From: Clostridiaceae bacterium Marseille-Q4145 | GTDB taxonomy: Bacteria > Bacillota > Clostridia > Lachnospirales > Lachnospiraceae | Length of the DNA: 32,000 nucleotides | Direction of reading: 5' to 3' | Assembly (NCBI GenBank): GCA_018223365.1 | Contig: JAGTTP010000001.1 | Coordinates: forward strand, 1,341,654 to 1,373,653 | Shown: positions 3,090-31,551 of the stretch, piece after piece | Position numbering within the stretch: position 1 is the stretch's first letter | Layout: each line of letters opens with the position of its first letter | Made by a program: the position numbers and the translations under genes | Notes under the pieces: model-generated | Seen by the model: only the letters and a program-made list of their open reading frames with translations | What the model was told of the DNA's origin: nothing | The model's database searches: none

Positions 3090-3093
3090 CACC

Positions 3094-3119
3094 AGCGGTT
3101 CGGAACAATCCGGGCCGCT
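3094..3119 (+). terminator. Weak terminator-like hairpin
   Basis: AGCGGUUCGG / CCGGGCCGCU stem (two G-U pairs), loop aacaat, followed only by tt. Confidence 0.3.
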
Positions 3120-3325
3120 TTCAATGGACAGGGCGTCAAAACAAGGTGAAATACGATACAAAAAATATAACAAGGTCGAATAGTGATAATATCAATATTA
3201 CTGGTAGATAGCTGGCTGTAGAAACTCTACTAACATAACCGATGAGCCAAAGGGTGTTATCTCCTCCAATACACTGTATGAGTATACTCAATTAGGAAAT
3301 ACTAAAAATATATTGAGCTACTCAG

Positions 3326-3354
3326 TTGCAAAAATGTCCCGAATAATATATAAT
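3326..3354 (+). promoter_or_regulatory. Sigma-70-type promoter of the abiE operon
   Basis: TTGCAA (3326-3331), a 17-nt spacer, then TATAAT (3349-3354), about 27 nt upstream of the abiEi start. Confidence 0.6.
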
Positions 3355-3363
3355 ATTCGGGAC
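3336..3363. promoter_or_regulatory. Perfect 10-bp inverted repeat overlapping the -10 box (candidate AbiEi operator)
   Basis: GTCCCGAATA atatataa TATTCGGGAC. The TATAAT box lies between and within the arms. Confidence 0.55.
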
Positions 3364-3380
3364 AAAAGGAGGTGAACATA

Positions 3381-3995
3381 GTGGCAAACGGATTCTCAAA
3401 ACAAATACAAGAGAGAATTGGAAACGCAGTCGATGGCACAATTTTTGTGAACTCTGATTTTGCGGATATTGCTGATCAGGAAACGGTCAGACGAACTCTG
3501 AACAGATTAACACAGGCTGGTATGCTCCGCAGAATACTAAAAGGTGTCTACGAAAAGCCGAAGTACAGCAAGTTGCTTGATGAATATGTAGTGGCCGACC
3601 CGGACGCTGTCGCAAAGGCATTGGCGCGAAGTTACCACTGGACCATTGCTCCATGCGGAAATACGGCCCTGAACCTGCTGGGCCTCTCTACACAGGTAAC
3701 AGCGGTCTGGTCCTATATCAGCGACGGCCCGTATAAGACCTATGAGTGGAATTCCACCAGGCTGGAATTTAAGCATAGAACCAACAAAGAAATCACCGGC
3801 CTGTCTTACATGACGAGTTTGGTGATTCAGGCGTTGAAAACTCTGGGAAGAACCAATGTGACGCCGGAGATTATACAGACGCTTTCTGAAAAGCTTTCCG
3901 AGGATGAAAAGCAAGCCTGTCTGAAAGAGGCAACGGAATCCACGGATTGGGTTTATGATACGATACGAAAAATGTGCGGAGGTGACACACAATGA
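3381..3995 (+). CDS. abiEi: AbiEi-family type IV toxin-antitoxin antitoxin / transcriptional regulator (winged HTH)
   Basis: N-terminal wHTH-like ETVRRTLNRLTQAGMLRRILKGVYEKP. It sits directly upstream of an AbiEii gene, overlapping it in ATGA. The listed GTG at 3372 lies inside the RBS aaggagg (3366-3372), so GTG at 3381 is the better-spaced start. Confidence 0.75.
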   Translation: MANGFSKQIQERIGNAVDGTIFVNSDFADIADQETVRRTLNRLTQAGMLRRILKGVYEKPKYSKLLDEYVVADPDAVAKALARSYHWTIAPCGNTALNLLGLSTQVTAVWSYISDGPYKTYEWNSTRLEFKHRTNKEITGLSYMTSLVIQALKTLGRTNVTPEIIQTLSEKLSEDEKQACLKEATESTDWVYDTIRKMCGGDTQ

Positions 3996-4996
3996 GAAAT
4001 GTAGCACGATTGCCGGAAAGTGACCGGCGCGAACTGTTCCGAAATACAGCAGATAAGATGGGCTTGAATGATGCCATCGTGGAGAAAGATTTTTGGGTAT
4101 GCTTTACTTTAGATTATCTGTTCCACCGCTGCCACTGGAAGAACGCTATTACCTTCAAAGGCGGCACCAGTCTTTCTAAGGCATTCAATTTGATCAGTCG
4201 TTTTTCCGAAGATATTGACCTGATTCTGGATTGGCGGGTACTGGGATATAGTAAGGATGAACCATGGGAAAAGCGCTCTAATACGAAGCAGGATGCGTTC
4301 AACAAAGAGGCCAATGCGCGGGCGGAAGTTTTCCTTGCGGAGCAGTTTTGTCCCACCATTCAGGTAGAACTTTCTCAAGAGCTTGGCTGTGAGGCAAACA
4401 TTTACATAGACGAGAAGGACAAGCAGACCGTTATCTTTGCCTATCCGCACCTGTTTACGAATTCCGCTACCTTACAGGTCATTCGTTTAGAAATTGGTGC
4501 ATTGGCTGCTTGGACGCCTGCAAAAATCGCTCAGATCGAGCCCTATGCAGCAACCTATTACCCAAAAGTATTCGCGCAAAAGGACACAGCGATTTTGACT
4601 GTTGCGCCGGAGCGGACTTTCTGGGAAAAGGCAACGATCCTGCACCATGAAGCCAATAGACCTGAAAGTTCCGAAATGCCTCAGCGTTATTCACGGCACT
4701 ACTATGACCTGTACCGCATGTCTATGACGCCTGTGAAGGAGGCAGCCTTTGCACAAGTGGAATTACTGAAAACAGTAGTAGACTTCAAAATGAAGTTCTA
4801 TCCAAGAGCCTGGGCAAAGTACCAAGAAGCAACTCCAGGAACCCTGAAGTTAGTTCCACCGGAATATCGCTTAGATGCTCTTGCGGAAGACTATGCGAAT
4901 ATGCGCGATATGCTCTATGGTAATATTCCTTCTTTTGAGGAAGTCATGAAGGTGATACAGAATTTAGAGAAGGAAATTAACTCAATAAAGAAGTAG
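3992..4996 (+). CDS. abiEii: AbiEii/AbiGii-family nucleotidyltransferase toxin
   Basis: Pol-beta-type NTase motif FKGGTSLSKAFNLISRFSEDIDL. Length is about 330 aa. The ATGA start/stop overlap with abiEi is typical of TA operons. Confidence 0.8.
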   Translation: MRNVARLPESDRRELFRNTADKMGLNDAIVEKDFWVCFTLDYLFHRCHWKNAITFKGGTSLSKAFNLISRFSEDIDLILDWRVLGYSKDEPWEKRSNTKQDAFNKEANARAEVFLAEQFCPTIQVELSQELGCEANIYIDEKDKQTVIFAYPHLFTNSATLQVIRLEIGALAAWTPAKIAQIEPYAATYYPKVFAQKDTAILTVAPERTFWEKATILHHEANRPESSEMPQRYSRHYYDLYRMSMTPVKEAAFAQVELLKTVVDFKMKFYPRAWAKYQEATPGTLKLVPPEYRLDALAEDYANMRDMLYGNIPSFEEVMKVIQNLEKEINSIKK

Positions 4997-5033
4997 GTAA
5001 AAAGAGCAATATGAGAAATGAGGTGAATTACCT

Positions 5034-6014
5034 TTGAATGTAGGGAGCGAGTGTGTGTTCGAGAGCATTGTTGCAAAAATTTTTGAAGCTGCTGGATATT
5101 CAGTAAACCAGAGTGTTAAATTGCAGCACCGGTCAGGAGATATAGATATTGTTGCTGAGAAGGATAATAAGCGTTATTGTGTTGAGGTAAAGTATTTACA
5201 GTTATACGAAAGAGCCGTGGAGCGAATCTATTTGACTGGAAAAACATTCGGGATGACGCCTGCAGTTGTGGTGGGAAGCAAAATTGATGAGAGAAAACGT
5301 AGTTATTATCTTGAAAAATATCCGGACTTGATTTTGATAGATATAACGAATTTGTTGTTTGCAGTGCAGCACCATACCGAACTACGTAATGAGTTAATTT
5401 CTGGATTACCGTATTCGATTGAAGAAATAGAGCCACAAGAAGGATTCTTGCAGATTGACAGCTTACAACATAATGATTATACGCATTCATTGATTGAGGA
5501 GATGAATTTATGTAAGGCGGGCAAGCCACTTGCTCGTACTTATGAAGTTCTCTGTCATAAGCTTTTAGAAAATGCTTTTTCGGAAGATTTAGCATTGTGG
5601 AAAGAGCAGCAAAAATCAAACAATGATCTATATAGATTTGATCTTTTATGCCGCATCAAAGATGAAAATCAAAAAACCTTTTGGTCCATTTTAGAAAGGT
5701 ATTTTAAGTCCAAATATGTTATTTTTGAGTTTAAGAATTATAGCAAGCCGATAACTCAAAAAGAAATATATACTACTGAGAAGTATTTATACGCAAAGGC
5801 ATTGCGCAGTGTAGGAATAATCATTGCCGCACATGGATATGATGAGCACGCCTACTGGGCGGCAAAGGGATGCCTGAGAGAGAACGGAAAACTCATTATT
5901 CTTTTAGACACAGATGATTTAATTGCAATGAATAAGCTAAAGGCAGACATGGAAGATCCTTCAATTTACTTACTAGACAAATTAGATAACATGCTTTCAG
6001 AATTGGAAAAATAA
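5034..6014 (+). CDS. Restriction-endonuclease-like protein with two PD-(D/E)xK-type motifs (Mrr-cat-like N-terminus)
   Basis: N-terminal FESIVAKIFEAAGYSV..GDIDIVAEKDNKRYCVEVKY (D..ExK). The C-terminal half has YEVLCHKLLENAF..RFDLLCRIKD..KYVIFEFKNY (a second D..ExK). The start is uncertain: TTG 5034 (after gaggtga) or GTG 5055 (after agggag). It lies 37 nt after abiEii with no intervening hairpin. Confidence 0.6.
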   Translation: MNVGSECVFESIVAKIFEAAGYSVNQSVKLQHRSGDIDIVAEKDNKRYCVEVKYLQLYERAVERIYLTGKTFGMTPAVVVGSKIDERKRSYYLEKYPDLILIDITNLLFAVQHHTELRNELISGLPYSIEEIEPQEGFLQIDSLQHNDYTHSLIEEMNLCKAGKPLARTYEVLCHKLLENAFSEDLALWKEQQKSNNDLYRFDLLCRIKDENQKTFWSILERYFKSKYVIFEFKNYSKPITQKEIYTTEKYLYAKALRSVGIIIAAHGYDEHAYWAAKGCLRENGKLIILLDTDDLIAMNKLKADMEDPSIYLLDKLDNMLSELEK

Positions 6015-6061
6015 CTGAAAAGTGATAAGGTCAAAGCAAGAGAATAGATGATACCTTATGT

Positions 6062-6099
6062 AGCCGGATAAATCCATTAAAGGAGTTATCCGGCTTTTT
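6062..6099 (+). terminator. Rho-independent terminator closing the AbiE-nuclease block
   Basis: AGCCGGATAA (6062-6071) pairs with TTATCCGGCT (6086-6095) and is followed by TTTTT. Confidence 0.7.
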
Positions 6100-6130
6100 C
6101 TATGTCAAAATCAAAATGGAGGTACACAGT

Positions 6131-6466
6131 ATGAACAATGAAGAACTGAACACAGCTCTATATGAGAAGATGTTTGCCGAACAGGAAACCTATCGGGCAT
6201 GGTTGCTATCTCAGACACCGGAAGAGATTTTGAACCACACCTATGAATACACGGTGCGGGAAGATATTCTGATGTCGCTGGAGTACCATGACTTGTCGGA
6301 TGGTCAGGCACGGGCATTGCTGAAGTCCCACAGCCCGCTTGCAGATGTATTTGCCGATTGGGAAAACAAAGAAACGGATTACATGGACAGCATTTGGCAG
6401 ACCGTTGAGGAACGGGCAAAGACGGAAGAACAGAAACATAGAAAGAAAGAGCAGCAAGAGCGATAA
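6131..6466 (+). CDS. Small conserved ICE protein (resembles DUF3848-type proteins)
   Basis: ATG 6131 follows ggagg. The sequence MNNEELNTALYEKMFAEQETYRAWLLSQTPEEILNHTYEYTVREDIL is of a kind I recall upstream of ICE primase genes. The family name is from memory only. Confidence 0.5.
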   Translation: MNNEELNTALYEKMFAEQETYRAWLLSQTPEEILNHTYEYTVREDILMSLEYHDLSDGQARALLKSHSPLADVFADWENKETDYMDSIWQTVEERAKTEEQKHRKKEQQER

Positions 6467-6472
6467 GACACG

Positions 6473-6502
6473 GGCCGGTTGGAGTATCCAATCGGTCTTT
6501 TT
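6473..6502 (+). terminator. Rho-independent terminator
   Basis: An approximately 11-bp stem (ggccggttgga / tccaatcggtc, with G-U pairs), loop gta, then TTTTT (6498-6502). Confidence 0.6.
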
Positions 6503-6557
6503 ACATAGCCGGACTGTGTTATGCAGTTAATTCTCAGCTATGGAAAGGAGGATTTTT

Positions 6558-7520
6558 ATGCCATATATTCCGCCAGAGGTAGTGGCAAAAGCAAAGGAAA
6601 TGGATTTGCTGACCTACCTTAAAAACTACGAACCGAGTGAATTGGTGCATTTCGGAGGAAGCACTTATTGTACCAGGACCCATGACAGTTTGAAAATCTC
6701 CAACGGCAAATGGTGTTGGTTTTCCCGTGGTATTGGCGGCAAAACGGCTTTGGACTATCTGATCAAAGTCCGTGAGATACCGTTCATGGAGGCTGTCGAA
6801 ATGATTGTGGGACAAGCAGCAGTTCAGCCGCCGGTTTATACTCCAGCTCCGAAACGAGATGTGCCTAAAATGTTGCTGCTTCCACCGGCAAGCCGTAGCA
6901 CCTCTCTTGTGGAGAAGTATCTTTCCGGGAGAGGGATTGACCACGAGCTGATTCGTTTTTGTCTGGATACCGGTAGGCTCTATGAGAGCAGCGGCAGATA
7001 CCACAATGTAGTCTTTGTCGGCCATGACCGATATGGAGAAGCCCGCTATGCTAATCTTCGGGGGATTTCCTCTGATTTCAAAGGAGAGTGCAACGGCAGT
7101 GATAAGCGCTTTGCATTTAATATTCCTGCGAAAAACAGTGAGGTTCTTCACCTGTTTGAAAGCGCCATTGATTTGCTTTCTTTTGCTACCATGCAGAAAT
7201 TGAATGGTGAGAACTGGCAGAGGGAACATCTGTTATCGCTGGCAGGCGTCTATCAGCCCAGAGAGAAAATCGAGGAAAGCGCAGTACCACTGGCACTGAC
7301 ACAATACCTGAAAGATCACCCGGAGGTCAAGACGATTCTGCTGCGGCTGGATAATGACTATGCCGGACGCATGGCGGCCAAGGCGTTAATGGCTGTTCTG
7401 ACCAAGGATTACACTGTCGCAGTAAGGCTTCCGCCCAGGTGCAAAGATTACAATGACTACCTGTGTTCCGGTCTGGGTATTTCAGCCGCGAAACCGAAAA
7501 CACGAAATGAAGAACGATGA
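6558..7520 (+). CDS. Toprim-domain DNA primase-like protein (DUF3991/toprim type)
   Basis: ATG 6558 follows ggaaaggagg. Toprim signatures are LHLFESAIDLLS (Glu) and LLRLDNDYAGR (DxD). The N-terminal half resembles ICE primase-associated domains. Confidence 0.75.
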   Translation: MPYIPPEVVAKAKEMDLLTYLKNYEPSELVHFGGSTYCTRTHDSLKISNGKWCWFSRGIGGKTALDYLIKVREIPFMEAVEMIVGQAAVQPPVYTPAPKRDVPKMLLLPPASRSTSLVEKYLSGRGIDHELIRFCLDTGRLYESSGRYHNVVFVGHDRYGEARYANLRGISSDFKGECNGSDKRFAFNIPAKNSEVLHLFESAIDLLSFATMQKLNGENWQREHLLSLAGVYQPREKIEESAVPLALTQYLKDHPEVKTILLRLDNDYAGRMAAKALMAVLTKDYTVAVRLPPRCKDYNDYLCSGLGISAAKPKTRNEER

Positions 7521-18868: not shown

Positions 18869-20612
18869 AACAAGAGAAAAAGTCAAAGGTACGGTCAAAA
18901 CACTGGATAAAGCCGCAGTTGCCGGAGAACGTATGAAAGCAGCCTATGTTCGTACCAAAGAAAAGGCTGAGCAAGGGATTCAGGCCAAGGAAGATTCTCC
19001 AGAGGAATATGCGGCTGATCGTATCTCAGCAGGTTCGGAAACTGTGGTGCATGAAGCTGTCCGCCAATTTGATAAGCAAGGTCGCAAGGGTGTCCGGGAA
19101 ACAAAAGAGAACATTTCTAAGGCAAAGCAGTATTTTGAACAGCGCAGAGCAGACCAGCCGAAAAAGCAGGCGCAAAAAAGAGCAGCAGAGAATGTACGCC
19201 GTTCTGCAGATGTGAAAAAACAGTCTGTAAAAAGTACAGAGTATGGGTCGTGGCCCATCAAAACCGTAGAGCGTGGTGAAAAGCAAATCCGGCGAGCTGC
19301 CAGCTCTGCAGGCAAGGGCACCATTAAAACTACACAGAAATCTGTAAAGACTGCAGAGCATACCGCGCGAACAACGATCAAGACCAGTCAGAATGCGGTG
19401 AAAACGGCTCAGAAATCCGCCCAGACAGCGGCAAAGGCTTCGCAGCGTGCGGCCCAGGCAGCTCGTTCCACTGCAAAAGCAACCGCCGATGGCATAAAAG
19501 CGGCGGCGAAAGCTACGGCATCTGCTGTAAAGGCAATTATTGCGGCAACAAAGACGTTGATTGCCGCAATCGCTGCGGGTGGATGGATCGCTATGGTGGT
19601 TATCGTCATTATTTGCTTGATTGGACTGATCGTCGGCTCGTGCTTTGGTATTTTCTTTTCTGGAGAGGACACCGGCACCGGACAGACTATGCAGACTGTG
19701 GTGCGGGAGATCAATGCAGACTATGAAGCGCAGATTGAATCCATCAAAGGAAGCTGTTCTTATGATGTGTTGGAAATGTCCGGTTCCCGTGCTGTCTGGC
19801 CGGAAGTCCTATCCGTTTATGCGGTCAAAACTACCACTGATCCAGATGAGCCGCAGGAGGTTGCTTCGATGGATGATGCCAAGAAAGTAATTCTCAAAGA
19901 TATTTTCTGGCAGATGAATGAGATTTCTTCCCGGACGGAGAGCAGCATAGAAACGGTCATTGATGAAACGGACGATGGGAACGGAAATATCGTTGAAACC
20001 TCGACCACTGTTACCAGAACTACATTATATATTACAGTCAGCCATAAGACCGCAGAGGAAATGGCTGCACAATATGCGTTCAGCACAGAGCAGCGACAGC
20101 AATTATCGGAATTGCTTGCCAGTGAAAATAACTCTCTCTGGTCAGCGGTGCTGTACGGTATTTCTGTGGGTGATGGCGAGATCGTATCGGTGGCATTGTC
20201 GCAGGTTGGCAATGTAGGCGGTCAGCCTTATTGGTCCTGGTACGGATTCAATTCTCGCGTGGAGTGGTGCGCCTGCTTTGTTTCCTGGTGTGCCAATGAA
20301 TGCGGCTATATCGACAGCGGCGTTATTCCGAAATTTGCGGGGTGTGTCAACGGTGTGCAATGGTTCAAGGACCGTGGCCAATGGCAGGACCGTAACTATG
20401 AACCTTCTGCCGGTCAGATCATTTTCTTTGATTGGGATAATAAAGGCTCATCCGGTCCGCAGGATGGTCAGTCCGATCATGTCGGTGTCGTGGAGAAATG
20501 CGAAAATAGCATTGTCTACACTATCGAGGGCAATTCCGGTGATAGCTGCCGCCAGCGCCAATATCCTGTTGGACATTATGAGATTCTTGGATACGGTGTT
20601 CCGGCGTACTAA
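18855..20612 (+). CDS. Conjugation-associated cell-wall hydrolase with C-terminal CHAP domain
   Basis: ATG 18855 follows gaggaggtgga. It has an Ala/Lys-rich N-terminus, a TM segment WIAMVVIVIICLIGLIVGSCFGIFF, CHAP Cys VEWCACFVSWCANECGY and His SDHVGVV. Confidence 0.8.
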   Translation: MPDIKTREKVKGTVKTLDKAAVAGERMKAAYVRTKEKAEQGIQAKEDSPEEYAADRISAGSETVVHEAVRQFDKQGRKGVRETKENISKAKQYFEQRRADQPKKQAQKRAAENVRRSADVKKQSVKSTEYGSWPIKTVERGEKQIRRAASSAGKGTIKTTQKSVKTAEHTARTTIKTSQNAVKTAQKSAQTAAKASQRAAQAARSTAKATADGIKAAAKATASAVKAIIAATKTLIAAIAAGGWIAMVVIVIICLIGLIVGSCFGIFFSGEDTGTGQTMQTVVREINADYEAQIESIKGSCSYDVLEMSGSRAVWPEVLSVYAVKTTTDPDEPQEVASMDDAKKVILKDIFWQMNEISSRTESSIETVIDETDDGNGNIVETSTTVTRTTLYITVSHKTAEEMAAQYAFSTEQRQQLSELLASENNSLWSAVLYGISVGDGEIVSVALSQVGNVGGQPYWSWYGFNSRVEWCACFVSWCANECGYIDSGVIPKFAGCVNGVQWFKDRGQWQDRNYEPSAGQIIFFDWDNKGSSGPQDGQSDHVGVVEKCENSIVYTIEGNSGDSCRQRQYPVGHYEILGYGVPAY

Positions 20613-20616
20613 AAGT

Positions 20617-20638
20617 CAGCCGCCAAATACGGCGGCTG
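20617..20638 (+). terminator. Hairpin after the CHAP gene (no T-run)
   Basis: CAGCCGCC aaatac GGCGGCTG, 5 nt after the stop. Confidence 0.35.
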
Positions 20639-20676
20639 GTACATATTATAAGGGACTTGCTGCCAAGTCCGCTTTC

Positions 20677-20717
20677 AGGAAAATAGGCGGTGGCGGAATA
20701 ATCCGTCACCGCCTATT
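20677..20717 (-). terminator. Rho-independent terminator of the minus-strand surface-protein gene
   Basis: A 16-bp stem AATAGGCGGTGGCGGA / TCCGTCACCGCCTATT (one G-U) with loop ataa. On the minus strand it is followed by TTTTC. Confidence 0.7.
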
Positions 20718-20751
20718 GTGTTTAGGCTATTTCGATTTTGGAAGCGTTGAC

Positions 20752-23700
20752 TTATTCAGCCTCGGATTCCTTTCTCTTTTTGACTCTTACGCCCAGCACG
20801 GTCAGAACACCGCCGCTGACGAACAGAGCAGCCAGCCAACCGATGAGGTTGCTGCTGTCACCGGTCCGAGGAGACTTGGTGGAGTCGTCCTTTCCGGGCT
20901 TAGCGGTGTTATTATCACCGCTGCCTGTATTGCCGGTGCTGCCGCTGTCGGAGAGCTTGGCGATGACCGTATTCTCGCTGCGCTTAGCGCCGCAAACGGT
21001 GCATTCCTCGTGCTTGATGCCGGTGGCCTTCTTGGTAGCGGCCTTGTCGATCACCCACTGGAAGCTGTGTGCTGCCGTGTCGGCCTTGTCGCGACACTCA
21101 CACTCATGCCAGTGATTGGTGTCGTCATACTTCCAATCCGTGCCGTAGCTGTGGGTATGAGTGCTGCCTGTTGCAGGGATCGTTGCGGTTTCAAGCACCT
21201 TCTTGCAGACGGTGCATTCCTTATGCTTAGCGCCTTCTGCGGTTTCGGTAGCTGCCGTGTCAACGATCCACTCGCTGGCGTTGTGAGCCGCTACATCGGC
21301 CTTGTCGCCGCACTCGCACTCATGCCAGTGATTGGTGTCGTCATACTTCCAATCTGTGCCATAGCTGTGGGTATGTGTTGCGGGGATCGTTGCGGTTTCA
21401 AGCACCTTCTTGCAGACGGTGCATTCCTTATGCTTAGCGCCTTCTGCGGTTTCGGTAGCTGCCGTGTCAACGATCCACTCGCTGGCGCTGTGAGCCGCTA
21501 CATCGGCCTTGTCGCCGCACTCGCACTCATGCCAGTGATTGGTGTCGTCATACTTCCAATCTGTGCCGTAGCTGTGGGTATGTGTTGCGGGGATCGTTGC
21601 GGTTTCAAGCACCTTCTTGCAAATGGTGCATTCCTTATGCTTAGCGCCTTCTGCGGTTTCGGTAGCTGCCGTGTCAACGATCCACTCGCTGGCGCTGTGA
21701 GCCGCTACATCGGCCTTGTCGCCGCACTCGCACTCATGCCAGTGATCGGTGTCATTATACTTCCAATCCTCGCCATAGCTGTGGGTATGATCGCTGCCTG
21801 TTGCGGGGATCGTTGCGGTTTCAAGCACCTTCTTGCAGACGGTGCATTCCTTATGCTTAGCGCCTTCTGCGGTTTCGGTAGCTGCCGTGTCAACGATCCA
21901 CTCGCTGGCGCTGTGAGCCGCTACATCGGCTTTGTCGCCGCACTCGCACTCATGCCAGTGATTGGTGTCGTCATACTTCCAATCTGTGCCATAGCTGTGG
22001 GTATGTGTTGCGGGGATCGTTGCGGTTTCAAGCACCTTCTTGCAGACGGTGCATTCCTTATGCTTAGCGCCTTCTGCGGTTTCGGTAGCTGCCGTGTCAA
22101 TGATCCACTCGCTGGCGCTGTGAGCCTCAATATCGGCCTTGTCGCCGCACTCGCACTCATGCCAGTGATTGGTGTCGTCATACTTCCAATCTGTGCCGTA
22201 GCTGTGGGTATGAGTGCTGCCTGTTGCGGTGAACATTACCTTGAACTGGACAGAGCCGTCGGGATCTTTCGACAGCAGGTCCACGACCTTGCCGTTTACA
22301 TTCAGCTTCATATCGTCGGCGAAGGTCACGCCCTCCTTCGGCTCCAGATAAACGATGGCCGTATATTCCTGGCCGGCCACAAACGCCGTGTTGCCGCTCA
22401 GCATGCCGGACCACCACATCATGGCCTTTTTGACCTTATCCTTATTGTCGCCGAGCACGGGGATGTCCACGGTGCCCTTGGGCTTCTCTCCGGCCACCGG
22501 TGCTGCGATCTGCACCGCCGCCTCCGTCACATAGTTGGGGTCTTCGGCGGCCTTTGCGGGGAAGTTCACATAGACCAGCAGGTTCTTTCCATCGCTGTCA
22601 CTCTTGACCTGCCAAACCTGGCCGTCGTTGATGGTCACGTCAGCCGTGGAGATACCCTCTGCAATGGTGTAGCCCGGGTTGATCGGGAACTGATAGACCA
22701 CGGAATAGTCCTTATCCTTGTCATAGGCGGTGGGTGTCGAGCCGCTGCCGTCCGTATTCAGGCCCTCACGGAGAAAACGGGCCGGATTTCCCATGCCGCC
22801 GGTGGGGGTATAGCTCTGGCAGTCGAAGTCTTCCAGCTTCGTGCGCTCCGCCTTGGGCTTCACCTGGATGGTCACGGTCTTGACCACCTGCCCCGCCGTG
22901 GAGGCTGCCGGGAAGTTCACATAGACCAGCAGGTTCTTTCCATCGCTGTCACTGCTGACCTTCCAGACCTGACCGTCGTTGATGGTCACGTCAGCCGTGG
23001 AGATACCCTCTGCAATGGTGTAGCCCGGGTTGATCGGGAACTGATAGACCACGGAATAGTCCTTATCCTTGTCATAGGCGGTGGGTGTCGAGCCGCTGCC
23101 GTCCGTATTCAGGCCCTCACGGAGAAAACGGGCCGGATTTCCCATGCCGCCGGTGGGGGTATAGCTCTGGCAGTCGAAGTCTTCCAGCTTCGTGCGCTCC
23201 GCCTTGGGCTTCACCTGGATGGTCACGGTCTTGACCACCTGCCCCGCCGTGGAGGCTGCCGGGAAGTTCACATAGACCAGCAGGTTCTTTCCATCGCTGT
23301 CACTGCTGACCTTCCAGACCTGACCGTCGTTGATGGTCACGTCAGCCGTGGAGATACCCTCTGCAATGGTGTAGCCCGGGTTGATCGGGAACTGATAGAC
23401 CACGGAATAGTCCTTATCCTTGTCATAGGCGGTGGGTGTCGAGCCGCTGCCGTCCGTATTCAGGCCCTCACGGAGAAAACGGGCCGGATTTCCCATGCCG
23501 CCGGTGGGGGTATAGCTCTGGCAGTTGAAGTCTTCCAGCTTCGTGCGCTCCGCCTTGGGCTTCACCTGGATGGTCACGGTCTTGACCTCCTGTCCCGCTG
23601 CGGAGGCTGCCGGGATGTTCACAAAAACACGAATCGCGTTTGACAGGCCGCCATAGTCATCTGCTATCCAGAAGTCGCCGCCGGTGACCGTCACATTGTC

Positions 23701-24888
23701 CTTTAGATTGTCCCTTAGATTGTCTGAAAAACTAAAACCTGCTTTTGCAAGAAAGAGATACATTACCGTATAACTCTGATTCGGGTCATACGGTGTGTTT
23801 TTGTCTTCGATCTTATCCGATGTATTCTCCCAGCCCTTATAAACGATGAAATTAGATAGAGTCATTTTGTTAGATGGACTGTAACTACACGCCAAATCCG
23901 AGATCGTCTCGCGCGTGATAAGAGGTTCTACAGTCAAGCTAACCGTATTGATCTCTTTACTGATATCATCAGTAATATTGACACTGTCTGTCAGCGAGCG
24001 CACGTCTGCGCTCAGCGGGGTATCATCTGACAGCTTATAGATTTTCTGGTTGGTGCCAAGATAATCCGAAATATGTTTTGTGTTGCCCTGGTGCAGATAA
24101 ATGCTATGTCCATCCGTTACGCCATCGGTAGTATGAATGATGCTATTCTCAATCGTCAAAGTGGCATCTTCGTCAATGAAGATTGTTCCGCTGCTATTTT
24201 TCGTTATGTTAGTTCCCGGAAGAACGGAACTTTTTACGATAGCATTTTTTATGTTTGTTGTGCCTTTGATAGCATAAACTGCACCTCCATAGGAAACGCC
24301 GCCGGTTTTTCCTTCCAGTGTAGCGTTATCAATATTCACAGTGCCGCCAGCGTTGTATACTGCTATGCCATAAGTAGCTAAATTGTAGGCGCCGGTCAGT
24401 GTAACGCCACCGGATATGTTTACTGTTGCATCATTTTCGACATCGACAACAGCATTAGTCGCACCTCCGTTTGAAGTTGCCTCGAAGGTCAGCGAACCTT
24501 TTCCTTTAATATCCAGACGTTCACCAGATCCATTGATATATAATAAGCTTCTTACGACGCTGCCACTCGCAGCGCCTGTAACCGTAACAGTACCATCTAC
24601 AATGAGCGTCTTTTGCCTTAGGATTTTAATAGCTGAATCGTAAGCATCCAGTTTCAAAACTTTTGTAATGTTGGTTCCGCTAGGAACTTTGATGTACTGC
24701 ATCCCCAATCCCACGGTCTCCTTTTCCAGTTCGGCCTTTAGCTCATCAAAGGTCGTGACGATATAGGGGTCGCTCGCTGTACCGCTGCCTGTCGTTGCAC
24801 CGCTGCCATCTGCTGCAAAGGCCATTGTGGGGAACAGACCCACCACCATGACGAGGCAGAGCAGGATGCTCAGTATCTGTTTTCTCAT
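20752..24888 (-). CDS. Giant secreted, sortase-anchored surface protein (putative adhesin): beta-helix-like N-terminal region, 3 x 117-aa repeats, 6 x 69/72-aa Cys/His repeats, SPRTG sorting signal
   Basis: RBS aaggag. Signal peptide MRKQILSILLCLVMVVGLFPTMAFA. GGAVYA/NATL-type repeats suggest a parallel beta-helix. The C-terminus has SPRTG (20860-20874), then hydrophobic LIGWLAALFVSGGVLTVLGV, then RVKKRK. Confidence 0.85.
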   Translation of the reverse strand: MRKQILSILLCLVMVVGLFPTMAFAADGSGATTGSGTASDPYIVTTFDELKAELEKETVGLGMQYIKVPSGTNITKVLKLDAYDSAIKILRQKTLIVDGTVTVTGAASGSVVRSLLYINGSGERLDIKGKGSLTFEATSNGGATNAVVDVENDATVNISGGVTLTGAYNLATYGIAVYNAGGTVNIDNATLEGKTGGVSYGGAVYAIKGTTNIKNAIVKSSVLPGTNITKNSSGTIFIDEDATLTIENSIIHTTDGVTDGHSIYLHQGNTKHISDYLGTNQKIYKLSDDTPLSADVRSLTDSVNITDDISKEINTVSLTVEPLITRETISDLACSYSPSNKMTLSNFIVYKGWENTSDKIEDKNTPYDPNQSYTVMYLFLAKAGFSFSDNLRDNLKDNVTVTGGDFWIADDYGGLSNAIRVFVNIPAASAAGQEVKTVTIQVKPKAERTKLEDFNCQSYTPTGGMGNPARFLREGLNTDGSGSTPTAYDKDKDYSVVYQFPINPGYTIAEGISTADVTINDGQVWKVSSDSDGKNLLVYVNFPAASTAGQVVKTVTIQVKPKAERTKLEDFDCQSYTPTGGMGNPARFLREGLNTDGSGSTPTAYDKDKDYSVVYQFPINPGYTIAEGISTADVTINDGQVWKVSSDSDGKNLLVYVNFPAASTAGQVVKTVTIQVKPKAERTKLEDFDCQSYTPTGGMGNPARFLREGLNTDGSGSTPTAYDKDKDYSVVYQFPINPGYTIAEGISTADVTINDGQVWQVKSDSDGKNLLVYVNFPAKAAEDPNYVTEAAVQIAAPVAGEKPKGTVDIPVLGDNKDKVKKAMMWWSGMLSGNTAFVAGQEYTAIVYLEPKEGVTFADDMKLNVNGKVVDLLSKDPDGSVQFKVMFTATGSTHTHSYGTDWKYDDTNHWHECECGDKADIEAHSASEWIIDTAATETAEGAKHKECTVCKKVLETATIPATHTHSYGTDWKYDDTNHWHECECGDKADVAAHSASEWIVDTAATETAEGAKHKECTVCKKVLETATIPATGSDHTHSYGEDWKYNDTDHWHECECGDKADVAAHSASEWIVDTAATETAEGAKHKECTICKKVLETATIPATHTHSYGTDWKYDDTNHWHECECGDKADVAAHSASEWIVDTAATETAEGAKHKECTVCKKVLETATIPATHTHSYGTDWKYDDTNHWHECECGDKADVAAHNASEWIVDTAATETAEGAKHKECTVCKKVLETATIPATGSTHTHSYGTDWKYDDTNHWHECECRDKADTAAHSFQWVIDKAATKKATGIKHEECTVCGAKRSENTVIAKLSDSGSTGNTGSGDNNTAKPGKDDSTKSPRTGDSSNLIGWLAALFVSGGVLTVLGVRVKKRKESEAE
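20959..22215 (-). repeat. Six in-frame tandem repeats (207 or 216 bp) encoding a Cys/His-rich module
   Basis: The landmark cactcgcactcatgccagtgat recurs at 21095, 21311, 21518, 21725, 21941 and 22148. The unit is THTHSYGTDWKYDDTNHWHECECGDKADVAAHSASEWIVDTAATETAEGAKHKECTVCKKVLETATIPA. The C-proximal copy is the most diverged. Confidence 0.9.
22561..23613 (-). repeat. Three in-frame 351-bp (117-aa) tandem repeats, nearly identical at the DNA level
   Basis: gaagttcacatagaccagcagg recurs at 22561, 22912 and 23263. Copies 2 and 3 appear identical by eye from the unit start until one substitution near the 3' end (cagtcgaag vs cagttgaag), after which copy 3 diverges. Confidence 0.9.
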
Positions 24889-25534: not shown

Positions 25535-26392
25535 TTAAGCGGAGTGGCGCAGCGTTAGCGGCGCCACTCCAGTCTTTGTCTGGATGCGCTCGTGGTTGTA
25601 GAAATGAATATAACGATCAATCATTTCATTGGCTTCATTGAAGGACACCGGTTTGTGTCTGTAAATACACTCGGTTTTAAGAATGGAGAAAAAATTTTCT
25701 GCCATCGCATTGTCATAGCAGTTCCCGCGTCTTGACATGGACGGAGTTATACCGTATTTTTGAGTTAGCTTGAAATATGCTTGGGATGTATATTGAAAGC
25801 CCTGGTCGCTGTGGAGGTGCAACTCCGCAGCGACCCTCTTTTTCTCTTTGCGCATAGCAAGGCGGATCGTGTCCAACACAAGGTTAACCGTTTGTTCTGT
25901 GCCAGTCTTATAAGCGACAATGCTGTTATCGTATAGATCCCGGATCATTGACAGATACAGAACGCCTTGCTTTGTGTGTATATACGAAATGTCTGTGACC
26001 CATTTTCTGTTAGGCTTGTCAGTATGAAACTGCCTGTTGAGCAGGTTCTCATAGCGATGCAGCTGCTGTCCCATGTTGACCCACTTTCTTCGACGGCGGA
26101 TTTCAGACAACAGATCGTATTTTTTCATCACACGCAGAATGGTTTTGGGGTTGTAATGTGTGCCTTTGGATTCCAACGCAAGACACATCCTGCGATATCC
26201 GTACGTGTTGAAGCTTTTTTTCTGCTGCTGACGGATTGCTGCCGCCAGTTCCGCATCCTTTTCCGGTTTTCCAATCCTGTGGACAAAATCATAGTACCCG
26301 CTTCGTGATACGCCAAAAAATCGACACATCGTGGATACTGAATATTCCGACCGATGACGATGGATAACAGCGTACTTTGCCCGTGGCCTCAC
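25535..26392 (-). CDS. IS3-family transposase OrfB (DDE/rve catalytic domain)
   Basis: DDE context KWVTDISY, LHSDQGFQY, CYDNAMAENFF. It is in the -1 frame relative to orfA and overlaps it as GTGA. Confidence 0.9.
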   Translation of the reverse strand: MRPRAKYAVIHRHRSEYSVSTMCRFFGVSRSGYYDFVHRIGKPEKDAELAAAIRQQQKKSFNTYGYRRMCLALESKGTHYNPKTILRVMKKYDLLSEIRRRRKWVNMGQQLHRYENLLNRQFHTDKPNRKWVTDISYIHTKQGVLYLSMIRDLYDNSIVAYKTGTEQTVNLVLDTIRLAMRKEKKRVAAELHLHSDQGFQYTSQAYFKLTQKYGITPSMSRRGNCYDNAMAENFFSILKTECIYRHKPVSFNEANEMIDRYIHFYNHERIQTKTGVAPLTLRHSA

Positions 26393-26780: not shown

Positions 26781-27410
26781 TTATTCGTCTTTCAAGGTGG
26801 TTACCATGAGCTTGTTTTCAATGGCGGTTGCAACCAGCGATTCTCTGTTTTCAAAGCCGCCCTTTTCCACCATATCGTCCAGGTTCCAGCGAACGCCGTT
26901 TTTGGAGATACCCAGCTTATCAGCGATTTCCTGATAGGTAAAGCCCTTTATATAAAGGCGCAGGATGTCTAACTGCCGGGGCGAGAAGGCATCGGACATC
27001 GTACCCTCCATTTCAATGGCCGGTGCGGTATCGGGAAAGACCTTTTCCCCTGCCAGAGTGCGCTTTACCACGCTCATCAGTTCCTCCGTGCCGTGGTCCT
27101 TATACCACAGGCTGTCGGCGGCGCCCATTTTGGCTCGTTCCAACACCTGCGGATCGACAAGCGAGGTAGCCACAACGATTTTAATCTGCGGGAAAGCCTT
27201 TTTGATACGCTCTGCGGCGGCAAGACCGGAGTGCTTGTGCTGCGTCTGCACATCCATAAGGACGAGCTTTACGGTGGCGTCGCAATGCTTTTCCGCTTCA
27301 AAGGCGTCACGGAAAACGCCGACAAGATAAAACTCACCGTCTGCCGTAAGACGATTGACAAAGTGCTTTTGGATGTATAAATCATCCTCTACAAGTATGG
27401 TGTTAATCAT
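26781..27410 (-). CDS. NarL/LuxR-family response regulator
   Basis: Canonical receiver residues (VEDD, LVLMDV, VVATS, WYKD) and a LuxR-type HTH LDILRLYIKGFTYQEIADKLGISKNGVRWNL. Confidence 0.9.
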   Translation of the reverse strand: MINTILVEDDLYIQKHFVNRLTADGEFYLVGVFRDAFEAEKHCDATVKLVLMDVQTQHKHSGLAAAERIKKAFPQIKIVVATSLVDPQVLERAKMGAADSLWYKDHGTEELMSVVKRTLAGEKVFPDTAPAIEMEGTMSDAFSPRQLDILRLYIKGFTYQEIADKLGISKNGVRWNLDDMVEKGGFENRESLVATAIENKLMVTTLKDE

Positions 27411-28657
27411 AGGCTGATCTCCTTTGCGGGAATCGTAATCAGAAGAGCAAATCGTGGATTATGCGAAATATGCATTTCGCCGCCGGAGCTTTCAATACTG
27501 CGGCGAAGTGTTGACAGGCCGCTGCCTTCCTTTATCGGCTTTGTGGGTATTTTGCCGTTGTTGGTTATGGTAACATCATAGCGTTCGCCTCGCTGGGCAA
27601 TGCGGATATATACCTCATTTCCGTCTGCGTGCTTGATGCAGTTGGTCACGCACTCCTTGGCGGCGGCAACGGTCAGCTCCTCGGCTACGGTATCACGAGG
27701 CAGGTAGCCATCGATTTTTACAGCTACGCCAAGCTGTCGGGCGGTTCTTTTAGCCTCGTCCATTGTGCTGACAGAGGTGACACGGTTGCTTGCCAGCATA
27801 CCGATGGCATTTTGCAGTGCCTCAAGCTTTTGCTCGGTATTCTCACCGCTGTCTATGATGTCACGGATGGTCAGGAGGCTTCGGCCGATGGTATCGTGAA
27901 TATAGATCTTCAGGTCAAGGCTTTCCTTCTCCTTGACATCGTCCTCCATGCGGGCGTACATCTTTCTGAGCTTTTGATTGACTTCTGCCAGTTCTTCATT
28001 TATTTTCTCTTGCTTTTGGTAGCCGTTATACAGATCGGTTACATTATGCGCCGTTATCTGCTGCCAGCGGTCATCGCCGTCCACAGCGATATTCTGTGTG
28101 CGGAACTGCCAGACGGTCTTGTCGGGCAGGATATAGCAATCATCCTTGACGGTTACGGATTTGTCCGGCAGCGTTAAAGCATTTTCCATATCGCTTTTGA
28201 TTTGCGGCTCCTGGCCGCAAAGGACAAAGGACAGCCTGCGCATACGGTTGTTGCATAGGATGATCCTGCCGTTCGGGTCGGCAAAGCAGATGCCCATGGG
28301 TAGCTTATCGGTTGCTTCCTTAATGGAGAACGGCGAGAGCTCGTTCTTTTTACGGCGGTATTCCCGCGGCAGAGCAATGGCAAAGTGAACTGCCGCAAGA
28401 AAAATGGCAGAGGCAAATATCAGCCACGGTGCGCCGAGCAGAAATGCGTCCCCGATATTATCGGGATCTGCCTGGGAAACGGAGAACAGTAACGGGATCA
28501 TCACCGCTATAACCGCCAGGCTCAGCAGGCTGCGCACCGGCTTATTGCTGCGGAGAAGCTGATATATAAACAGCCCAATTTCAAGGACAATCTCCACAAG
28601 CATAATAAACGGCAGCATGGTCTGCCAAAATTCAGAAAGGGAAGAAAACGCACTCAT
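27407..28657 (-). CDS. Sensor histidine kinase (HisKA_3-type DHp plus HATPase)
   Basis: Three N-terminal TM segments, a PAS-like middle region, H-box KIYIHDTIGRSLL, N-box ECVTNCIKHA, G-box EGSGLSTL. A 4-nt overlap with the response-regulator gene. Confidence 0.85.
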   Translation of the reverse strand: MSAFSSLSEFWQTMLPFIMLVEIVLEIGLFIYQLLRSNKPVRSLLSLAVIAVMIPLLFSVSQADPDNIGDAFLLGAPWLIFASAIFLAAVHFAIALPREYRRKKNELSPFSIKEATDKLPMGICFADPNGRIILCNNRMRRLSFVLCGQEPQIKSDMENALTLPDKSVTVKDDCYILPDKTVWQFRTQNIAVDGDDRWQQITAHNVTDLYNGYQKQEKINEELAEVNQKLRKMYARMEDDVKEKESLDLKIYIHDTIGRSLLTIRDIIDSGENTEQKLEALQNAIGMLASNRVTSVSTMDEAKRTARQLGVAVKIDGYLPRDTVAEELTVAAAKECVTNCIKHADGNEVYIRIAQRGERYDVTITNNGKIPTKPIKEGSGLSTLRRSIESSGGEMHISHNPRFALLITIPAKEISL

Positions 28658-30342
28658 TTCCCATCACCTTCTTTCACTTCAAACACAAGGTGCTGATATT
28701 CCTCGTCATCCTCTTTTTCATAGCGAATACCATCTCCGCTTACGAAAGCCGAAAGGTCGGCTTTGCAGCACACATTCAGCGACAAGCGCAAGCCATCTGC
28801 CTTTATGAGACTTACCTGTATGCCTGTTAAATTCAAAATGTCGGCTTCAATAACCGATTCGTAAAAATCAAATACAGCGGTCGCTGTTTTGCCGGAGAGC
28901 ATGGAAAGAGACTCGTCCACATAAAGTGAGCTGCGGACTCCCAACAGCTTCAGCGTTTGGAGGGACTCGTTGAAGGCACGGTGGAGTTCCGTTGCCGCTA
29001 TTTTAATATCTCGGTCGGTAAGGAGCGTCAGATGCTTGCGGCGTTTAATGTAGCTGCACAGCACGGCAATCTCGGCAAGGAGCGTTTTGGCGCTGTCGGG
29101 GTCGGTGCTTGAGATTCGGCGGTATTCCTTAGTGAGCTCTGCAATGCGGTCTATCTGCGTCTGCGTAGCGGAACGCAGGAGATCATACAAACGGTTTTGC
29201 TCCTCCACTTTGCGGCGCTTGGCTTCACGCTTGTATTCATAACGGAGTATTTCGTTTCGGTCGGCAAGCTCGTCTGCAAGAAGCTCGGAGTCCTCCTTGA
29301 TATCGCGCAGAACCGACACATCCTCCGTCCACACAGCATAGCCGCCGTCAATGGGCATGGTGTGAACGGTCAAGCCGCCGCCCAGCGTGACCGGGCTTTG
29401 CTCGGCTTTTTTCATCGTTTCCTTTGAGATAGGCGCAGTATTTACAGCTGCATACCGAACGGTAAAGTCCTTGTCGGTGATCTCTGCCGATGTGCCGACA
29501 GAGGAGGCAAATAAGTCCACATAACGGCTGTTTGAATGTATATATCCGCAGGCGATGCAGAACTCAAAGGTCAGAATGTACATCACACTTTGGAACGCAG
29601 CAATATCGCCGAACAAGTGGAGCAGCCAATCCACGCCCACATAGTAAAGTGCGCTGTAAACTATCGCCAGCAGCATAGGAACAACGGGCAGAAAGTGGAG
29701 CCTTCCTTTTTGCACACGGCATTTGAAAAACATAATAACGAGTGCGGCTAAGGCGCACATCACCTGCCAGCCCACACTAATGAAGTAGCCTACCGAGTAG
29801 CCGTTGTTTTTGTCCGTCCACACGGCGGCGTCCTTCGGAAAGGTAAATACGAATTGGTGCAGGTCATTTGTGAGTACGAGCAGAAGCAATACACCGGAGA
29901 TGATCCACAGAACCGACATTCCCCTGGGAAATTTGTATTCGTCCGGTTTCCCTAATGACATGGCAATCAGCAGCGCCAGCATAGGCACAAACAGCATGGG
30001 AAGATAGAACAGATACCACAGGTACCGGACGGCATCCGGCTGCCAAAATATAAAATACTTTGCCGAACGGACTACCATCCAGATGATGAGCAACACTGCG
30101 GTGCCCGTCATAAACCAGCATACCTGCTTTTGCACGATCCGCTGACGGACGGAGAGCCCCCAGGCGGCGAACAGGCCGATATAGATAAAGCTGCGCAGAT
30201 AGGAAAACAGCATCGGGTAGAAGCTGCCCCTGCCCACAATTCGGAAGCAATATGCCAATATCACGGTAAGAACAGCGATGCCGCTTGTTATGATAATATT
30301 CTTTTTCTGTTTGGTCATAAACAGCCCCCGTTTCGCCTTCAT
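28654..30342 (-). CDS. Polytopic membrane sensor-like protein with a kinase-like but apparently His-less/ATP-lid-less C-terminal region
   Basis: About 10 hydrophobic segments are followed by a coiled region. There EQNRLYDLLRSATQTQ occupies the place of a HisKA_3 H-box (Arg where His is expected, by eye-alignment). No N/G1/G2 boxes were seen in the last approximately 130 aa. A 4-nt overlap with the downstream kinase. The start is ATG 30342 or ATG 30318. Confidence 0.55.
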   Translation of the reverse strand: MKAKRGLFMTKQKKNIIITSGIAVLTVILAYCFRIVGRGSFYPMLFSYLRSFIYIGLFAAWGLSVRQRIVQKQVCWFMTGTAVLLIIWMVVRSAKYFIFWQPDAVRYLWYLFYLPMLFVPMLALLIAMSLGKPDEYKFPRGMSVLWIISGVLLLLVLTNDLHQFVFTFPKDAAVWTDKNNGYSVGYFISVGWQVMCALAALVIMFFKCRVQKGRLHFLPVVPMLLAIVYSALYYVGVDWLLHLFGDIAAFQSVMYILTFEFCIACGYIHSNSRYVDLFASSVGTSAEITDKDFTVRYAAVNTAPISKETMKKAEQSPVTLGGGLTVHTMPIDGGYAVWTEDVSVLRDIKEDSELLADELADRNEILRYEYKREAKRRKVEEQNRLYDLLRSATQTQIDRIAELTKEYRRISSTDPDSAKTLLAEIAVLCSYIKRRKHLTLLTDRDIKIAATELHRAFNESLQTLKLLGVRSSLYVDESLSMLSGKTATAVFDFYESVIEADILNLTGIQVSLIKADGLRLSLNVCCKADLSAFVSGDGIRYEKEDDEEYQHLVFEVKEGDGK

Positions 30343-31045: not shown

Positions 31046-31090
31046 CCTCCAATCAATTTGATTTTTCAAAAATTTCAAATTGATTGGAGG
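31046..31090 (+). promoter_or_regulatory. 16-bp perfect inverted repeat whose 3' arm contains the sigma-factor RBS
   Basis: CCTCCAATCAATTTGA (31046-31061), a 13-nt loop, then TCAAATTGATTGGAGG (31075-31090). GGAGG lies 8 nt upstream of ATG 31099. Confidence 0.6.
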
Positions 31091-31098
31091 TACATAAC

Positions 31099-31551
31099 AT
31101 GGATGCTGACAAGAAAAGAGTATGGGTCAGCGGTCAATACATTGAAGTGACGGATGTCGTTTACGATGCCTATATGAAAGGTGATCGAAAAATTCGCTAT
31201 TTTGAAAATGACCTTAAAACGGAACGGGTCCTGATGGATACCGATGGACATATCAAACAGATCATTCCCAGCCGTGAGGATTCTTTGGACAGGCTTATGG
31301 ATGATAACGCCGAGCAGTTTACGGATCATCACGAAAGTGTTGAGGATATGGTGCTGCGAAAAATCTCTGCAGAAAAGCTGTATCAGGCGTTGACAGAGCT
31401 TTCTGAAAAGGAGCGGGAACTGATCGTTGCGCTGTTCTTCGAGGAAAAGACGGAACGTGAACTTGCTATAGTTCTTGGAATTTCTCAGCCTGCTGTCCAC
31501 AAGCAGAAAAACAAAATTCTCAAAAAGCTGAAAACTTTTCTTGAAAAATAA
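31099..31551 (+). CDS. Small sigma-70-family protein (region 4-type HTH only recognisable)
   Basis: LSEKERELIVALFFEEKTERELAIVLGISQPAVHKQKNKILKKLK is a region-4 HTH. ATG 31099 is preferred over the listed TTG 31084, which lies inside the RBS. Confidence 0.75.
   Translation: MDADKKRVWVSGQYIEVTDVVYDAYMKGDRKIRYFENDLKTERVLMDTDGHIKQIIPSREDSLDRLMDDNAEQFTDHHESVEDMVLRKISAEKLYQALTELSEKERELIVALFFEEKTERELAIVLGISQPAVHKQKNKILKKLKTFLEK

Follow-up and report, generated by a model that had tools for sequence, protein, structure and literature searches.

The abiE-G3 locus

Clostridiaceae bacterium Marseille-Q4145, a member of the Lachnospiraceae, carries an integrative and conjugative element (ICE) in which a short cassette of defence-related genes interrupts the backbone. 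The window analysed here is the whole stretch of 32,000 nucleotides (nt) of contig JAGTTP010000001.1 between positions 1,341,654 and 1,373,653; positions are counted from its first letter, and related loci are designated by L and a number. The open reading frame (ORF) map exhibits three same-strand genes between the DUF6664 gene, which ends at 3089, and the DUF3848 gene, which starts at 6116 (Table 1). The first two encode AbiEi and AbiEii, the partners of an AbiE toxin-antitoxin (TA) module, and the third encodes a protein of 326 amino acids (aa) with two nuclease-like domains, termed G3. AbiE and G3 are likely to be two independent defence modules, a two-gene system and a mobile single-gene nuclease, stacked in a cargo hotspot of the ICE.

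An earlier note on this DNA had described an AT-rich islet lying inside an ICE backbone, between helicase-side and primase-side genes, with a near-consensus promoter, a clear terminator (6062-6099), abiEi and abiEii overlapping by ATGA and, after a 37-nt gap devoid of hairpin, a 326-aa third gene product with two PD-(D/E)xK-like motifs. All of this holds apart from part of the base composition. The backbone is recognised by genes encoding an SNF2 helicase, DUF6664, DUF3848, a DUF3991/Toprim primase, a relaxase, a T4 coupling protein and a VirB4-like ATPase. A consensus scan identifies the promoter at 3326-3354 as the sole good sigma-70-like site ahead of the three genes, and a promoter scan of the related locus L021 recovers the same single abiE promoter. 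No promoter-like or plus-strand terminator-like site is detected in the window within 3535-5974. No promoter of its own is found for G3 at the scan threshold, neither in the window nor in L021, although a weak or non-sigma-70 promoter might escape the scan. The spacer between abiEii and G3 folds without any meaningful hairpin (dG -4.6, z -1.2), and the hairpin at 6062-6095, followed by a T-run, is strong. This combination of one promoter, a spacer without hairpin, no internal signals and a strong hairpin after G3 makes a single abiEi-abiEii-G3 transcript plausible. Because G3 has no detectable promoter here, its transcription probably reads through from the abiE promoter, which would place it under AbiEi repression.

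The base composition is split within the islet. The abiEi (47.3% GC) and abiEii (45.9%) genes, with a GC content at third codon positions (GC3) of about 0.50-0.52, are close to the backbone (47-50%), and the description as AT-rich does not apply to them; it does apply to G3 (36.3%, GC3 0.355) and to the leader at 3090-3371 (37.9%). The same split is found across all contexts, with 30-36% GC for G3 homologues versus 45-51% for abiEii. It is evidence of different origins for G3 and abiE, and G3, to judge from its lower GC content, seems to have arrived later, from a source poorer in GC.

Table 1. Features of the abiE-G3 cassette and the evidence on which each is based (window positions)
Feature	Position	Strand	Basis
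Replaceable cargo segment (abiE + G3) between the DUF6664 and DUF3848 genes	3121..6090	+	Flank-homology breakpoints versus L107 and L111
abiE promoter, TTGCAA-17 nt-TATAAT	3326..3354	+	Consensus scan, 10/12 matches; hexamers conserved in five abiE loci
Perfect 11-bp inverted repeat, TGTCCCGAATA / TATTCGGGACA, putative AbiEi operator	3335..3364	.	Arms co-vary among loci
abiEi, antitoxin/repressor, 204 aa from GTG 3381	3381..3995	+	Pfam DUF6088, PADLOC AbiEi
abiEii, nucleotidyltransferase toxin, 334 aa	3992..4996	+	Pfam and PADLOC AbiEii, nucleotidyltransferase motifs
37-nt spacer with G3 ribosome-binding site GAGGTG (5020-5025)	4997..5033	+	No promoter or terminator detected
Portable G3 cassette: ribosome-binding site, ORF and own terminator	5011..6100	+	blastn versus stand-alone L098
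G3, 326 aa, Mrr_cat-like N-terminal and PD-(D/E)xK/RecB-like C-terminal domains	5034..6014	+	Domains, motifs, model
Intrinsic terminator: 10-bp outer stem, 3-bp inner stem, T-run	6062..6100	+	dG -20.1 kcal/mol, z -5

The AbiE module

In the AbiE family, AbiEi represses its own promoter and neutralises AbiEii, a nucleotidyltransferase (NTase) that blocks growth once freed. AbiE is known as a type IV TA and abortive-infection system; reclassification as type VII and an antitoxin-induced auto-phosphorylation have been proposed recently (bioRxiv 10.64898/2026.01.19.700257). The window AbiEi matches Pfam DUF6088 (4.7e-31) and the PADLOC AbiEi model (1.4e-64). Its ORF (3372-3995) opens inside the ribosome-binding site (RBS), and the likely start is the GTG at 3381, 8 nt past GGAGG (3368-3372); gene callers use the same 204-aa form in the near-identical contig L001. 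AbiEii matches Pfam PF08843 (AbiEii, DUF1814) with an E-value of 3.6e-34 (119 bits for a cut-off of 22.5) and the PADLOC AbiEii model (1e-110), and its NTase motifs, G57-G58-T59-S60 and D74-x-D76, are intact in the translation. The module thus resembles AbiE of Lactococcus lactis and Streptococcus agalactiae, with two overlapping genes (ATGA at 3992-3995), a DUF1814/PF08843 NTase harbouring GG(S/T) and DxD motifs, and an AbiEi-family partner; as in the S. agalactiae and S. suis systems, it is carried on an ICE. Unlike AbiE of L. lactis and S. agalactiae, the window module has an AbiEi of the DUF6088 branch: the score against NCBIfam TAA_AbiEi is 23 bits for a cut-off of 150 bits, so AbiEi represents a divergent branch. 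A second difference is the foreign nuclease gene added at the 3' end of the operon.

A perfect 11-bp palindrome (3335-3364) spans the promoter spacer and the -10 box. Promoter and palindrome are conserved in five abiE loci (the window, L021, L189, L193 and L198), in which the -35 and -10 hexamers are fixed and the palindrome arms change symmetrically, each substitution being compensated in the opposite arm (GTCCCG/CGGGAC, GTAACG/CGTTAC, GCAACG/CGTTGC, GTCACG/CGTGAC). This is what the operator of a dimeric repressor should look like, and the palindrome is most likely bound by AbiEi. An inverted repeat over the promoter is also a feature of AbiE of S. agalactiae and L. lactis and is consistent with AbiEi autoregulation, for which S. 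agalactiae is reported to use inverted repeats (Hampton et al. 2018, cited in the AbiE preprint). The S. agalactiae system has paired repeats, whereas the window has a single perfect palindrome. The variants found across loci constitute a clean natural data set on AbiEi operator specificity.

G3, a two-domain nuclease-like protein

The G3 gene opens with a TTG codon. Residues 9-67 of its product match Pfam Mrr_cat (PF04471; 2e-10, 41 bits for a cut-off of 21), while the remaining ~250 residues have no match in Pfam, NCBIfam or PADLOC, even at E-values up to 1-10. Alignments of 16 close and 94 diverse family members reveal two conserved motif sets. In the 94 representatives, the N-terminal set, E10/D38/E51-x-K53, is conserved at 97% for D38, 77% for E51 (Asp in 9%) and 89% for K53; the C-terminal set comprises E171 (98%), D203 (100%), E232 (98%) and K234 (100%), together with a RecB-like QxxxY motif, Q242-x3-Y246. 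Mean column conservation is 0.62 in the C-terminal part versus 0.33 in the N-terminal part.

The AlphaFold2 model of G3 (pLDDT 82.5) is composed of two alpha/beta domains, and Foldseek returns restriction-endonuclease-fold matches (AF1548, the Avs4 nuclease domain, EcoT38I, MspJI, Cdn1, Can2 and Hjc), none of which spans both domains. A sequence search of the PDB with the full-length profile retrieves AF1548 alone, through the N-terminal Mrr-like part, and the C-terminal profile retrieves nothing meaningful. Modelled in isolation, the C-terminal domain reaches a pLDDT of 67, less than it has within the full-length model; Foldseek yields no match for it at E <= 0.001, the weaker ones being restriction-fold-like (Nt.BspD6I, VC1899, Cdn1, Avs4 and RPB5). 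An internal duplication was considered and discarded, as hhalign relates the N- and C-terminal halves weakly (36% probability), with the helix-Glu and Asp motifs alone being aligned.

The family comprises 888 relatives at 90% clustering and ~1,570 clusters at 50% identity, and spans several phyla, Bacillota and Pseudomonadota among them. Most relatives are 325-350 aa long with the same two-domain layout, while larger members (480-650 aa) possess other N-terminal extensions. The dN/dS ratio of G3, 0.05-0.11, indicates that strong purifying selection maintains the gene. The annotation of the family is scarce: its proteins carry only the labels “hypothetical” or “restriction endonuclease” in databases, and close homologues are named “hypothetical protein” or “Holliday junction resolvase-like predicted endonuclease”. 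A literature search on three-gene AbiE, DUF6088 and Mrr_cat defence genes found no description of G3 or of the AbiE-G3 arrangement.

Several features bring G3 close to Mrr and type IV restriction enzymes: the Mrr_cat match above the Pfam cut-off, the E-D-ExK residues, and the absence of a methyltransferase from the cassette (3121-6090), whose ORF map contains abiEi, abiEii and G3 only. The structural matches AF1548, Avs4 nuclease, MspJI and EcoT38I also point to Mrr-like modules, a class that includes the ZorD module. Unlike those enzymes, however, G3 has its Mrr_cat domain at the N-terminus, limited to residues 9-67 and followed by a second, better conserved nuclease domain, and neither the Pfam scan nor the AlphaFold2 model reveals a reader domain (winged helix, SRA or similar). 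G3 also differs from type II and type III restriction-modification (R-M) systems in having no cognate methyltransferase beside it. The resemblance to Shedu (SduA) is one of design only: a single gene, a conserved C-terminal PD-(D/E)xK core, a variable N-terminal region and, as for G3 relatives, a location in defence islands. Shedu membership was considered in view of Type 1D Shedu, in which Mrr_cat or another restriction-nuclease N-terminal domain is fused to a DUF4263 nuclease (Gu et al., bioRxiv 10.1101/2023.08.10.552793). It was rejected: the C-terminal domain of G3, in which 29 residues separate the D from the ExK motif, has no match to Pfam DUF4263 (PF14082), to the PADLOC Shedu models or to NCBIfam, and no Shedu chain is found among the top 50 Foldseek PDB matches. 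The best reading of the motifs, the predicted fold and the neighbourhood is that G3 would be a stand-alone, methyltransferase-independent DNA endonuclease for defence, designed like type IV enzymes and Type 1D Shedu but without demonstrable membership in either group.

Some distant members of the family (36-45% identity) are located directly behind C5 or N6 DNA methyltransferase genes in L060, L076, L077 and L087. Ordinary R-M systems may therefore use the G3-type C-terminal domain for cleavage as well.

Genomic contexts of G3

The contexts of G3 homologues were collected from 72 representative-genome loci, with neighbours called crudely, and 56 upstream proteins were scanned against Pfam. AbiEii is the upstream neighbour in 3 of 56 cases, two of them being the window-type block and the third a different AbiE type separated from G3 by 318 nt. 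Large serine recombinases account for another eight, and AAA_13, TIR, C5-methylase and UvrD-like proteins for two each; the rest are housekeeping or of no recognised type. In 14 of the 34 two-domain members, the upstream neighbour is on the opposite strand or more than 150 nt away. Copies of G3 behind a window-type AbiE are confined to this ICE lineage (identical, or 76-77% identical) and to one chromosomal copy of the block. The earlier note had raised the possibility of a fixed third AbiE gene, and proposed a PADLOC run and a search for linkage in other genomes. PADLOC recognises both AbiE partners and has no model for G3, and no conserved linkage of G3 to AbiEii is observed, since its homologues are located behind many unrelated genes or alone.

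The closest non-identical homologues with a recovered context (84-85% identity) stand alone in a small island that carries an integrase and lies beside rpsI. Their neighbours are an AAA_25 gene and a type I R-M system, the flanks measure ~400 nt, and a terminator is found upstream. At 75% identity, G3 follows by ~25 nt a 286-aa coiled-coil-TIR protein recognised by PADLOC as PDC-S66 (2.5e-94; L005-L014, and L027 at about 5115-6975). At 66-69%, it lies 51-61 nt after an 800-aa AAA_13 ATPase (PDC-S06) in another ICE (L015-L020, L028, L029 and L103), and a 68% homologue is found 320 nt past an SLFN/AlbA-HATPase gene. Plasmid-borne homologues are distant (<40% identity); they belong to Bacillus, Agrobacterium and Rhizobium replicons, are labelled “restriction endonuclease” or “hypothetical”, and have no AbiE nearby in the two that were inspected. 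No homologue is present in 50,697 phage records. As G3 is repeatedly found beside defence genes, it is reasonable to regard its family as a candidate new single-gene nuclease defence system.

These contexts bear on two other explanations. According to the first, G3 would not be anti-phage at all, and would serve the mobile element through plasmid or ICE exclusion or DNA processing, or be a selfish solitary restriction-like gene. Its occurrence on ICEs, integrative islands and large conjugative plasmids, the serine recombinases among its neighbours and the empty phage search all fit this explanation. It is nevertheless quite unlikely, given that the close homologues mostly adjoin recognised or candidate defence genes (AbiE, TIR, AAA_13, type I R-M, SLFN/AlbA), and that G3 is located in the ICE cargo hotspot, outside the conserved transfer genes.

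The second explanation considers G3 as a generic add-on effector, a portable nuclease working with any immune gene behind which it has landed (the AbiE NTase, TIR or AAA_13) and gaining infection-responsive expression or activation from it. Close homologues of G3 do recur as the final gene after three unrelated defence genes, at distances of 23-80 nt; no promoter-like site precedes G3, whose homology with its stand-alone relative begins 23 nt upstream of the start codon, and in the window it would be under the AbiEi-repressed promoter. Against this, stand-alone copies have long upstream regions of their own, many family members follow housekeeping, recombinase or divergent genes, and G3 has no recognisable ligand-sensing domain. 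Furthermore, PDC-S66 and PDC-S06 seem to be single-gene candidates, to judge from the “S” in their PADLOC names. There is perhaps one chance in ten that this explanation applies.

AbiE relatives without G3

The reciprocal survey starts from the window AbiEii, for which a search at E <= 1e-20 gives at least 7,997 relatives; several of their clusters hold thousands of sequences. Three abundant clusters, 81-89% identical to the window protein, are two-gene modules without G3, so most members of this AbiE subfamily lack it; AbiE is a two-gene module here, as the earlier note had described it to be normally. One of the three clusters is chromosomal, between a peptidase gene and an arginine deiminase gene, and the other two belong to another ICE, in which an unrelated ORF of 122-126 codons is found downstream.

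This ORF is conserved 20-36 nt after the close AbiE pair in L193-L202 (~4020-4403) and has no Pfam match. It was examined as a relative of G3 and excluded, having no similarity to it; it is possibly another 3' passenger of abiE operons.

Loss and mobility of G3

G3 has been lost twice with abiE kept intact. In L118, the same abiE (82% nt identity) is directly followed by a remnant of the G3 C-terminus, ~20 codons long (KLDLEDPSLYLLDKLDEIL), and by the G3 terminator, which indicates that G3 underwent an internal deletion and abiE was spared. In Blautia sp. MSJ-19 (L044), a block equivalent to 3197-6047 is located among chromosomal housekeeping genes at 98-99% identity; its G3 has suffered a frameshifting 307-bp deletion, and its abiEi and abiEii are intact (97-99% aa identity).

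The borders of the Blautia block exhibit two 45-nt direct repeats (CTAARGATAAGTAAGT...AGTCAAAAGAATGCC) just to its right, and ATAAGTAAGT recurs at its left edge (L044, 1440-1510 and 4053-4150). They are possible traces of the recombination or insertion by which the block was moved.

G3 also moves without abiE. Between the window and the stand-alone L098, homology is confined to 5011-6013 (83.6%, blastn), starting 23 nt before the G3 start codon. L098 also shares the RBS region of the window and, judged by eye, its terminator stem AGCCGGATAAATCCAT; a homologous hairpin follows the stand-alone G3 there, and the terminator is kept in L118 despite the deletion of the gene. The mobile unit is therefore composed of RBS, ORF and terminator, and the terminator at 6062-6100 belongs to G3 and not to abiE. 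Divergence tells the same: the window G3 is 85% identical (aa) to the stand-alone copy, with a dS of 0.81, and 76-77% identical to the G3 of sister abiE blocks, with a saturated dS of ~2.8, whereas abiEii is 86% identical to that of the same sister blocks, with a dS of 1.75. This incongruence indicates that G3 moved or was replaced independently of abiE at least once.

A cargo hotspot of the ICE

The site of the cassette was compared in 80 metagenomic loci gathered via the neighbouring primase. Sister ICEs, with helicase genes 87-99% identical, keep DUF6664 and DUF3848 and possess other cargo of 1.7-3.1 kb between them. In L107 and L111, the flanks are 93-99% identical to the window, and homology stops at 3120 and resumes at 6091. 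At this site, L111 holds a different AbiEi_4/AbiEii pair without a third gene, L107 a PDC-S27 ATPase_2-DUF234 protein with a small ORF, and L110 SoFic with a SEC-C-motif protein. The site is empty in 21 of the 80 loci, which are more distant relatives; there, 99-177 nt separate the end of the DUF6664 gene from the primase gene. In this Clostridia/Lachnospiraceae-type ICE, the interval from DUF6664 to DUF3848/primase is a hotspot of variable cargo.

Hotspot 5 of the SXT ICEs is reportedly a defence hotspot of conjugative elements, as described by LeGault et al. in 2021. The present site resembles it as a fixed backbone position with interchangeable defence cargo (AbiE with G3, another AbiE pair, PDC-S27, SoFic, or nothing). 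It differs in belonging to an ICE family of gut Bacillota and in its position between the DUF6664 and DUF3848/primase genes.

One system or two

The earlier note had left the choice between a tripartite system and two stacked defence genes. In a tripartite AbiE, G3 would be an obligate third component; AbiEii might license it as an effector nuclease, for instance, or AbiEi might control it as a second toxin. The layout of the window, in which a single promoter precedes the genes, no terminator intervenes and 37 nt separate abiEii from G3, is what such a system would display. Several further observations weigh against independent modules. Two ICE sub-lineages share the abiE and G3 genes in collinear order at 76% nt identity, and the three genes moved as one unit (98-99% identity) into the Blautia chromosome. 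Two unrelated AbiE pairs also have G3 sequences close by: in a rabbit-gut Clostridia metagenome-assembled genome (MAG; L054, 4256-6966), a full 337-aa homologue is found 318 nt downstream of an AbiEi/AbiEii pair, and in a Phascolarctobacterium MAG (L093, 4550-6315), AbiEii directly adjoins a fragment of G3 from its C-terminal part (residues 222-326). Adjacency of AbiE and G3 is found in three independent cases among ~60 contexts, a raw count that either chance or a weak genuine association may explain. After AbiE, TIR and AAA_13 genes, G3 is always downstream on the same strand with short gaps, which would also fit functional coupling. Finally, G3 is absent from the PADLOC models of defence systems.

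The tripartite explanation is nonetheless extremely improbable. Most G3 homologues occur without AbiE, close AbiE relatives mostly occur without G3, G3 was lost twice with abiE intact, the two differ in GC content and divergence history, and in a sister ICE the same site holds a different AbiE pair that has no third gene. The three genes are able to travel and to persist as a group, but neither part needs the other. The alternative of two stacked defence genes is thereby favoured, on account of the varied partners of G3, the G3-less AbiE modules, the separate losses and the composition.

For these two independent modules, the following course may be proposed. AbiEi would repress the abiE promoter by binding the palindrome and would neutralise AbiEii, which, once freed, would block growth as an NTase. 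G3 would be produced from the AbiEi-limited abiE transcript and act separately on foreign DNA; it would work alone against incoming DNA, in a type IV restriction-like or Shedu-like manner, without a methyltransferase. The conserved C-terminal domain would form the cutting core, with the variable Mrr_cat-like N-terminal domain acting as a second nuclease or contributing target recognition.

A functional synergy of AbiE and G3 is given little credence. Also unlikely, if a shade less so, is the conjecture that promoterless, portable G3 inserts 3' of immune operons (AbiE, TIR/PDC-S66, AAA_13/PDC-S06) and gains infection-responsive control in this way. Were it true, G3 would be held off by AbiEi repression and set free once infection led to the titration or inactivation of AbiEi. 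A DNA-degrading effector would then be coupled to an abortive-infection TA switch, forming a functional, non-obligate three-gene circuit.

Other features of the window

The segment 20278-24888 is GC-rich (56-60% versus ~48% elsewhere) and contains two overlapping ORFs on opposite strands, 20278-23643 on the plus strand (1121 aa) and 20752-24888 on the minus strand (1378 aa), neither of which has a Pfam match. Downstream of the transfer genes, the minus strand encodes an rve-family transposase (25535-26392), a LuxR-type response regulator with a histidine kinase (26781-28657), and a 562-aa ORF without Pfam match (28654-30342). A sigma-70 region-4 protein is encoded at 31084-31551, and an Rfam pemK RNA motif is located at 31840-31957 (38 bits).

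Implications

AbiE is present here as a standard two-gene module, and annotators should not define a “tripartite AbiE” from this arrangement, which stands as a caution for guilt-by-operon inference. What is new is an uncatalogued family of putative nucleases, G3, with a habit of attaching 3' of other defence operons. It seems to travel as RBS, ORF and terminator and to borrow promoters, and defence genes would in this way stack into pseudo multi-gene operons. The hotspot between DUF6664 and DUF3848/primase belongs to a common ICE family of gut Bacillota, and its exchangeable cargo bears on the spread of phage and plasmid resistance in the gut.

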